From positions 15,562,001 to 15,626,000 of the forward strand of contig CM120640.1 of assembly GCA_051362555.1 (NCBI GenBank): a stretch of DNA of 64,000 nt, given 5' to 3'. This document shows, in pieces, positions 35,501 through 36,608 of this stretch (position 1 is its first letter; each line of letters opens with the position of its first letter). A model generated the notes under the pieces. That model saw only the letters and a list, made by a program, of their open reading frames with translations, did no database searches and was not told where the DNA came from. Source of the DNA: Lingula anatina. Its lineage: Eukaryota; Animalia; Brachiopoda. Position numbers and translations under genes: made by a program.

Positions 35501-36608
35501 AAACATAGTGCTATTGTAATGAATTTGAAACACCATAATTGAAATAGAAATACATTTTGACAAACGATTAAAAAAAGTCTTTCAAAAGAATAAACACTAA
35601 CAATGATAAAAGAGAAAAGACACAAAAATTGACTTTGGCTCAATGAAGACTTTGTTTGGGAAATCATGATTTACAGAAAACAAGTAAAACATTCAAGGTT
35701 TGCTCTCTTAAAAAAACTTTCATTTCTGTCCTGTTGCACATCTTTTTTAACACTTTAACATTATCTATTTTTTTCTCTGTAGCATTGTCTTGTTCTTGGG
35801 TGCATGTGTAGCTGGGTTATCTATTCTGTCAGTATACATTAGTGCGCATGAGTGAGATTGTTACCTGTGTAAAGGAGAATGTACAGGTATGTGTCTTTGA
35901 ATGGGGACATTTTGAAATTTGATACCTTAACAATAATTCTAACCCAAAACTCTTCCATTTGTCTCCTTTTCTCAACAGCACTTCTCGGCTTGCATCAGAA
36001 TATGCCTCTGATTACCTAAGTTCTAAGGCAAGGGATCTAAATGGTCGAGAACCATATTACACCAGATCGAGTGATATCTATAAAAGTACTGGAGATCATT
36101 CAAACTCATCTGCAAGTTCTGCATTGAAAAATTATAGGTCTAATTATTCCACAGTAAGTGATTCTTGTGTTGTGTAGGCAAGCTGGTGTGAAAGTGTGCA
36201 ATGTAGTTGAGAATGAAATAAAATACTGGTTTTGGATTTTGATGGGGTTTTACCTTTGTTAGACAATGTTATTAATGGCCTGTCTGCTTTCAAAATGTGC
36301 ATCACAGTTAACCATGATAATGCTTCTGCAACTGCTTGGATGGTAAGGAGCCACCTAAATTTACTCCTAGACATAATGGGGTGCTAACCATTACTGCAAC
36401 ATACATACTGTTAAGAAATTGTGGTTCTTGCTTGTCTGATGTGAACTTGAGTGTGTACTGTAAACAGTTGATTTTAGGACGCAAGTTAACAGGCCTTTTC
36501 TAATCAAACTGTAGTCTTTTAAAGATATTATGTATATATTTTTTATTCTTCTCTTTCAGTCGCTCAGGTCATCATACTCGTCTTACTAGAGCCTCTGTAC
36601 TGAGATGA
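23565..36608 (+). CDS. CDC14A: Cdc14 dual-specificity phosphatase; exons 23565(or 23589)-23637, 23752-23842, 24291-24366, 25247-25339, 26572-26651, 30224-30290, 30623-30685, [31524-31611 or 31903-31990], 32665-32895, 33327-33465, 33848-34055, 34359-34471, 34784-34990, [35783-35886], [35979-36153], 36560-36589/36608
   Basis: [46 protein letters not shown](K/R)VENGD, catalytic HCKAGLGRTG split across exons 9/10, [19 protein letters not shown]; all junctions GT-AG and in phase. Probably co-orthologous to CDC14A and CDC14B. Confidence 0.96.
31524..31611 (+). CDS. CDC14A: Cdc14 mutually exclusive exon 8a (88 nt)
   Basis: [37 protein letters not shown]+G|GTAGGA. Confidence 0.85.
31903..31990 (+). 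CDS. CDC14A: Cdc14 mutually exclusive exon 8b (88 nt)
   Basis: [36 protein letters not shown]+G|GTAGGA. Confidence 0.85.
35783..35886 (+). CDS. CDC14A: Putative Cdc14 cassette exon encoding a hydrophobic C-terminal anchor (stop 35853-35855)
   Basis: Acceptor TTTTTTTCTCTGTAG, donor CAG|GTATGT; after the phase-2 exon 13 it reads [24 protein letters not shown]. Confidence 0.6.

Follow-up and report, generated by a model that had tools for sequence, protein, structure and literature searches.

A 175-nucleotide (nt) exon sets which of two reading frames is used in the last exon of the CDC14 phosphatase gene of the brachiopod Lingula anatina. The gene lies on the plus strand of a 64,000-nt window (contig CM120640.1, positions 15,562,001 to 15,626,000; all coordinates below are those of the window), where it extends over 23565..36608. 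RNA reads contain both splice paths, and both of the resulting frames run to a stop of their own in the last exon. Considered together with orthologues and vertebrate paralogs, the evidence makes it likely that this choice is ancestral to protostomes and deuterostomes, that it swaps a docking motif at the C-terminus, and that its two readings were sorted late between CDC14A and CDC14B.

The gene was named from its catalytic-domain exon (32665..32895, +), which ends in the HCK of the HCxxGxGR motif and matches two Lingula RefSeq CDC14 proteins, P0002 and P0003, at 99%. Exons of these proteins were placed by tblastn at 23565-36586 on the plus strand, mostly with 93-100% identity, and the limits of the gene given above run from the start exon of P0003 to the later of the two stops. 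The predicted product contains the Pfam domains DSPc and DSPn together with the HCxxGxGR motif, and its best matches are CDC14 proteins, which identifies it as an animal CDC14 dual-specificity phosphatase. P0002 and P0003 are encoded on different scaffolds and are apparently flawed, as one has no N-terminus and the other contains part of the C-terminal region twice; they are likely to be haplotype copies of one gene.

The switch follows a constitutive exon of 207 nt (34784..34990, +; joined upstream by the RNA joint 34471-34784), which ends in VLK plus AG, in phase 2. Its donor is spliced either to a cassette exon (35979..36153, +) or directly to the last exon at 36560. The cassette is flanked by AG and GT, starts with S-T-S-R-L-A-S and, with 175 nt (3n+1), is not a multiple of three; it is entered in phase 2 and left in phase 0. 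When it is included, the last exon is read in frame 0 as SLRSSYSSY*, nine codons followed by a TAG at 36587-36589, and this stretch (36560..36589, +) is the dual-coded part of the exon. When it is skipped, the same DNA is read in frame +1 as a tail of 15 residues that ends with a TGA at 36606-36608 (36560..36608, +). An earlier note on this DNA, made from the letters alone, had described the length and phases of the cassette, both frames and both stops, and all of its coordinates are correct on the sequence. It had also proposed a search of RNA-seq data for the junctions 34990-36560 and 36153-36560, and both are present.

Raw reads were taken from four of nine listed RNA runs (three studies, 6-30% of each run read). 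The skip joint 34990-36560 was found in 59, 13, 10 and 23 reads of the four runs (105 in total), the inclusion joint 34990-35979 in 2, 0, 4 and 6 reads (12) and the inclusion joint 36153-36560 in 2, 0, 2 and 4 reads (8); all three joints are GT..AG. Inclusion of the cassette thus amounts to 3%, 0%, 23% and 18% by run and to about 9% in the pooled reads, and the skip form is the major CDC14 isoform of Lingula in RNA. It occurs in neither of the two Lingula RefSeq proteins found, both of which carry the inclusion tail, and the major isoform is therefore missing from both gene models. Inclusion is lower in runs X1 and X4 than in X7 and X9 (Fisher p = 7e-4), but the runs also differ in study, and the animals diverge by a few percent from the window, both of which confound the comparison. 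These values of 0-3% versus 18-23% may reflect tissue, stage or population. No splice joint was detected downstream of 36560 in the RNA reads, examined to 37300, and both stops therefore lie in the last exon; both forms are therefore expected to escape nonsense-mediated decay. Among the variants listed, a single one falls within 36560-36608 (36599 A>G, synonymous and located after the first stop), and indels begin at 36609. From there RNA depth and joints define a 3' untranslated region common to both forms (36609..37300, +), with an AATAAA at 37133. Loose read ends occur on both sides of 36984 in all four runs, which suggests that a stretch of the 3' untranslated region is absent at this point from the assembly or haplotype.

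The same arrangement recurs in orthologues. For each of 16 same-species pairs of annotated tails it was asked whether both could derive from one DNA read in offset frames, and all 16 could be encoded in this way. The exact Lingula geometry, with nine codons and a stop in one frame and five further residues in the other, was found in 13 of the 16 pairs, which come from oysters, scallops, clams, amphioxus, sea stars, skate, shark and gecko; the remaining pairs have seven codons (abalone) or six (two teleost CDC14B). In these orthologues the nine-codon tail ends in Tyr, and the other tail has 15 residues and mostly ends in I/L/M-R. The CDC14A tails of coelacanth and minnow and a cross-species marsupial pair also fit the offset-frame test, and a Lingula-Capitella control pair fails it. 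The cassette is homologous as well: after a Lys, it begins with S..RLAS in Lingula, amphioxus and CDC14A and with RLA.SLG in fish CDC14B.

Further sequences were obtained from 80 metagenome contigs fetched by catalytic motifs, and the results given here concern contigs among those listed. In the skip-form mRNAs L001, L028 and L051 the unused frame ends in YY*, YY* or LY* at the matching place, and the DNA of Lingula and of all three contigs reads TAC-TAG at the corresponding site. The three contigs group with annelids or bryozoans in quick trees with weak deep branches, which were used solely to group contigs with named proteins and on which the labels annelid-, bryozoan-, rotifer- and cnidarian-like rest. 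The DNA of the rotifer-like contig L008 encodes a Tyr-type tail that reads TAT-TAA, with neither a matching second frame nor a second stop. Tyr-type tails are also present in Adineta, Paragonimus and one of eight lamprey proteins, the last with nine residues and with no second frame seen among the lamprey proteins. At the level of sequence, the protein pairs and the three mRNA contigs establish the two-frame geometry in other phyla. As a separate observation, five mRNAs labelled arthropod-like (L014, L016, L017, L021 and L068; the label is a guess, the tree set having no named arthropod) have a +1 frame with a shared peptide, DYTPWS.., that runs across and beyond the stop of their xVR end and may perhaps represent a different dual-frame ending.

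Both frames are conserved in the orthologues beyond chance. In 300 trials per pair with shuffled second-frame tails, the observed two-frame overlap was never reached for 14 pairs and was reached once for each of the other two. When the second-frame peptide was coded with random synonymous codons, an aromatic residue and a stop arose at the right place with p = 0.012-0.068 in each of 12 lineages; conversely, random coding of the first frame gave the 15-residue length with p = 0.015-0.046, and this length plus an [ILMV]R end with p = 0.0004-0.001 (five lineages). These probabilities were kept separate by lineage, since the lineages are related and the pairs were selected. We infer that both frames are under selection, because each survives alone where the other has been lost. 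The single-copy outgroups possess both forms, in RNA in Lingula and as annotated isoforms in amphioxus, sea star and molluscs. The proposal of the earlier note that the last exon was ancestrally dual-coding is supported by the occurrence of one geometry in protostome and deuterostome orthologues, and for the same reason the switch would be at least as old as the split between spiralians and deuterostomes, which occurred more than 550 million years ago. For a dual-coding exon its age would then be exceptional, both frames being kept, to the codon, in animals that range from brachiopods to sharks and marsupials.

In vertebrates the two frames were probably sorted between the paralogs (the counts that follow include near-identical isoforms and derive from the best 120 hits with up to 15 members per cluster). 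CDC14A retains both frames in skate, shark, coelacanth, gecko and other lizards, crocodile, tortoise and possum. Its second frame overruns the old stop in frogs, to 41 residues, and in placentals (two shrews and the naked mole-rat), to 46. Among the placental CDC14A proteins listed, 42 of 112 have the Tyr tail, none of the 112 has an [ILMV]R end, and the four second-frame proteins extend for 46 residues. The stop of human CDC14A isoform 1 lies 27 nt, or nine codons, past the last junction, and SLQSEYVHY accounts for 25 of the 56 listed Tyr-type CDC14A tails. CDC14B retains both frames, with loss of the Tyr, in bichir (SLHT*, four codons) and teleosts (SLHTQS*, six codons). The cassette motif is present in 23 of 34 ray-finned CDC14B proteins and in none of the 134 from amniotes, among those listed; of the latter, 94 (human included) have an LR-type tail and none has the SLH tail. 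The human CDC14B end SRTKTVLR, given in the earlier note, was found in isoform X7 (P0450).

That note had further held that each frame resembles one paralog and had suggested that the two were partitioned between the duplicates. This description applies to the annotated proteins of placental mammals, where one form per paralog is seen, but not to most vertebrates: in sharks, fishes, reptiles and marsupials the frames are not paralog-specific, and the Lingula second frame (TRASVLR) is nearer to that of skate CDC14A (TKASLLR) than to human CDC14B. Because CDC14A and CDC14B each keep both frames in several vertebrates, sorting would have come much later than the duplication and in distinct steps. 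In CDC14B the Tyr frame would have been shortened, to four codons in bichir and six in teleosts, and the cassette would have gone by the time of the amniotes; in CDC14A the second-frame stop would have been lost independently in frogs and in placental mammals. Human CDC14A and CDC14B each likely retained one of the two readings. Their seemingly unrelated ends would accordingly be homologous DNA, and the gene would offer a traceable example of two reading frames sorted between duplicates.

The proposed effect of the switch concerns the tails alone. The catalytic domains stay unaltered, and the change is confined to the end of a disordered region. The codon-fixed length and the constraint on the last residues argue for motifs that are read at the free carboxyl end, where each tail would act as a short linear motif setting partners or location. 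We favour, on balance, such a swap of docking motifs that decides partners or location. It would indicate a pair of short terminal motifs within what is regarded as featureless disorder, and the difference between the paralogs would become testable by swapping 9-15 residues; C-terminal tags would mask the CDC14 ends. The locations of human CDC14B isoforms are set by their C-termini (PMC2422853), and truncated CDC14A moves to the nucleus (PMC12796106).

[quoted passage not shown] The hydrophobic residue and Arg stand at the end of a disordered tail, in Lingula as VLR; of 12 invertebrate second-frame tails listed, 10 end in IR, LR or MR, and of the 94 listed amniote CDC14B tails of LR type, 89 carry such an end. 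Kif18A reportedly has an LR variant of the APC/C tail. IR and MR tails bind the tetratricopeptide-repeat subunits of the APC/C (PMC5717348), and human CDC14B dephosphorylates Cdh1 (PMC6721574). It is possible, although rather doubtful, that a frame switch already present before protostomes and deuterostomes diverged gives CDC14 either an I/L/M-R tail that docks on the APC/C or an aromatic-ended tail, with human CDC14B and CDC14A as its frozen settings; if so, the way in which CDC14B gets to APC/C-bound Cdh1 would be explained by its last two residues. The minor inclusion tail ends in an aromatic residue. A PDZ interpretation of this Tyr tail found no supporting title in the literature searched and is a guess.

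Several observations weigh against an ancestral switch of docking motifs with late sorting. Inclusion reads in Lingula are scarce (12 and 8, and none in run X4). The orthologue pairs are predicted RefSeq isoforms that were chosen because both tails are annotated, and orthologue DNA was seen for three contigs, all of them skip-form mRNA. The two-frame geometry was found neither in Clytia and a pair of contigs placed with it nor among the arthropod-like contigs, which mostly have an xVR end and one of which (L010) has an LIR end without a first-frame stop. The terminal Tyr is lost in abalone (seven codons) and in fish CDC14B (four to six). Loss in amniote CDC14B and human CDC14A was judged from annotated proteins rather than DNA. 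The I/L/M-R motif is not kept in all lineages that retain the second frame, since amphioxus, sea stars and a bryozoan-like contig end otherwise; moreover, 6 of 12 listed normal-length CDC14A second frames, all from ray-finned fish, lack [ILM]R (four have no R and two end in FR). The missing terminal R in several lineages weakens a model with a single binding site, and a two-residue APC/C motif is weak evidence. CDC14B without its C-terminal domain is still nuclear (PMC2422853), and the LR tail is therefore dispensable for nuclear location.

If selection acted on one frame and the other were a tolerated by-product of leaky splicing, a conserved Thr-Lys/Arg pair could supply the Tyr and its stop at no cost, or untranslated sequence could be read out as the LR tail. 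The low inclusion (about 9% pooled, 0-3% in two runs), an overlap of just 30 nt with the stop lying within the conserved T-[KR] codons, and the loss of each frame in some lineage fit this explanation. Nevertheless, given either frame alone, the other is predicted in each lineage with p of at most a few percent, though both are found repeatedly in separate phyla; position 6 keeps its Tyr while the overlapping second-frame residues vary (H-T, N-M, R-M, N-T); and the lineages share the opening motif of the cassette as well as its 3n+1 effect. A by-product is thus improbable and largely refuted. Still less credence is given to the idea that the nucleotides themselves are what is conserved, as an element of the RNA such as a TACTAR site for a splicing or 3'-end factor, with the peptides merely following. 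The motif of the QKI type is ACUAA, and TAC-TAG stands at an equal position in Lingula and in L001, L028 and L051, but the bases upstream of this hexamer are highly variable, in contrast to the preserved number of codons, frame and type of residue, the rotifer-like contig has TAT-TAA, and neither the second stop five codons on nor the I/L/M-R end would be explained.

A clean partition with one frame per paralog, at or soon after the vertebrate duplication, would account for human-type CDC14A and CDC14B ends that each fit one frame. The presence of both frames in CDC14A of skate, shark, coelacanth, gecko and marsupials and in CDC14B of bichir and teleosts refutes it, unless these predicted isoforms are unexpressed, and it is given hardly any weight. 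A rather unlikely but weightier alternative to docking is that the switch tunes half-life, with tails that serve as C-terminal degrons or shields. C-degrons ending in Arg exist, and selection acts on the very last residues. In addition, frame-shifted C-termini alter protein stability in mammals (PMC7392665) and full-length CDC14A is unstable (PMC12796106); however, the destabilising tails of PMC7392665 are long and proline-rich, unlike those of CDC14, and in Lingula it is the form ending in Arg that predominates.

The mechanism itself is of a known kind, namely frameshifting skips of the penultimate exon and dual-coding regions. The cases of Preussner et al. 2020 (PMC7392665) resemble CDC14 in that the penultimate exon is non-triplet, the last exon contains the two stops and the C-termini are alternative, but they are mammalian, long, proline-rich and thought to be lineage-specific, whereas the CDC14 tails are short and of a length fixed across phyla; the accessible tables contain another Cdc14b event only, not the last-exon frame switch. 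Dual-coding regions of worm and human (PMC13247117) and in a human catalogue (PMC13160074) likewise have one DNA that splicing causes to be read in two frames, and their wobble positions are constrained. The CDC14 overlap of 30 nt falls below the 60-nt threshold of PMC13247117, and conservation was tested in those studies within mammals, vertebrates or nematodes, whereas the CDC14 case spans bilaterians; in their accessible parts CDC14A appears only as a decay-prone event or as isoform 4, and CDC14B is absent. The human CDC14B variants B1, B2, B3 and Bpar (Rosso et al. 2008, PMC2422853) also have alternative C-termini, which change location, but they use different terminal exons, and the available text does not mention a frame switch. 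The IR/MR tails of Cdc20, Cdh1, Apc10 and Nek2A (PMC5717348, PMC6721574) share with CDC14 a hydrophobic residue and Arg at a free C-terminus after disorder; any binding of a CDC14 tail to Apc3 or Apc8 would be putative, and several CDC14 lineages are without the Arg.

In the literature searched, mostly without subscription papers, there was no account of a two-frame last exon of CDC14 or of an IR-like CDC14B tail. Novel points are the RNA support from an invertebrate with one copy of the gene, the breadth of distribution over phyla, the time at which frames were lost and the lead to IR tails. Splice isoforms can be partitioned between duplicated genes (subfunctionalisation), and each human paralog similarly likely holds one of two ancestral isoform ends; CDC14 would differ in that the unit sorted was a reading frame within a single exon rather than a whole exon, and in that sorting was late, stepwise and partly parallel (frogs and placentals).

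Other features of the window were noted. Within the gene, 31524-31611 and 31903-31990 (+) are tandem 88-nt exons, identical at 78 of 88 bases and both flanked by AG..GT, which encode two versions of one segment of the catalytic domain. Two versions likewise occur in oyster, scallop, clam and abalone isoforms, and the exons are likely a conserved mutually exclusive pair. An open frame before a GT at about 21300-21457 (+) is similar to the start exon 23565-23637 and is possibly an alternative or decayed first exon. Elsewhere, a frame similar to NDUFS5 (Pfam PF10200) is present at 1623-1997 (-), and 10465-11073 (+) contains an exon of a PQ-loop repeat protein (Pfam PF04193), which we take to resemble cystinosin.
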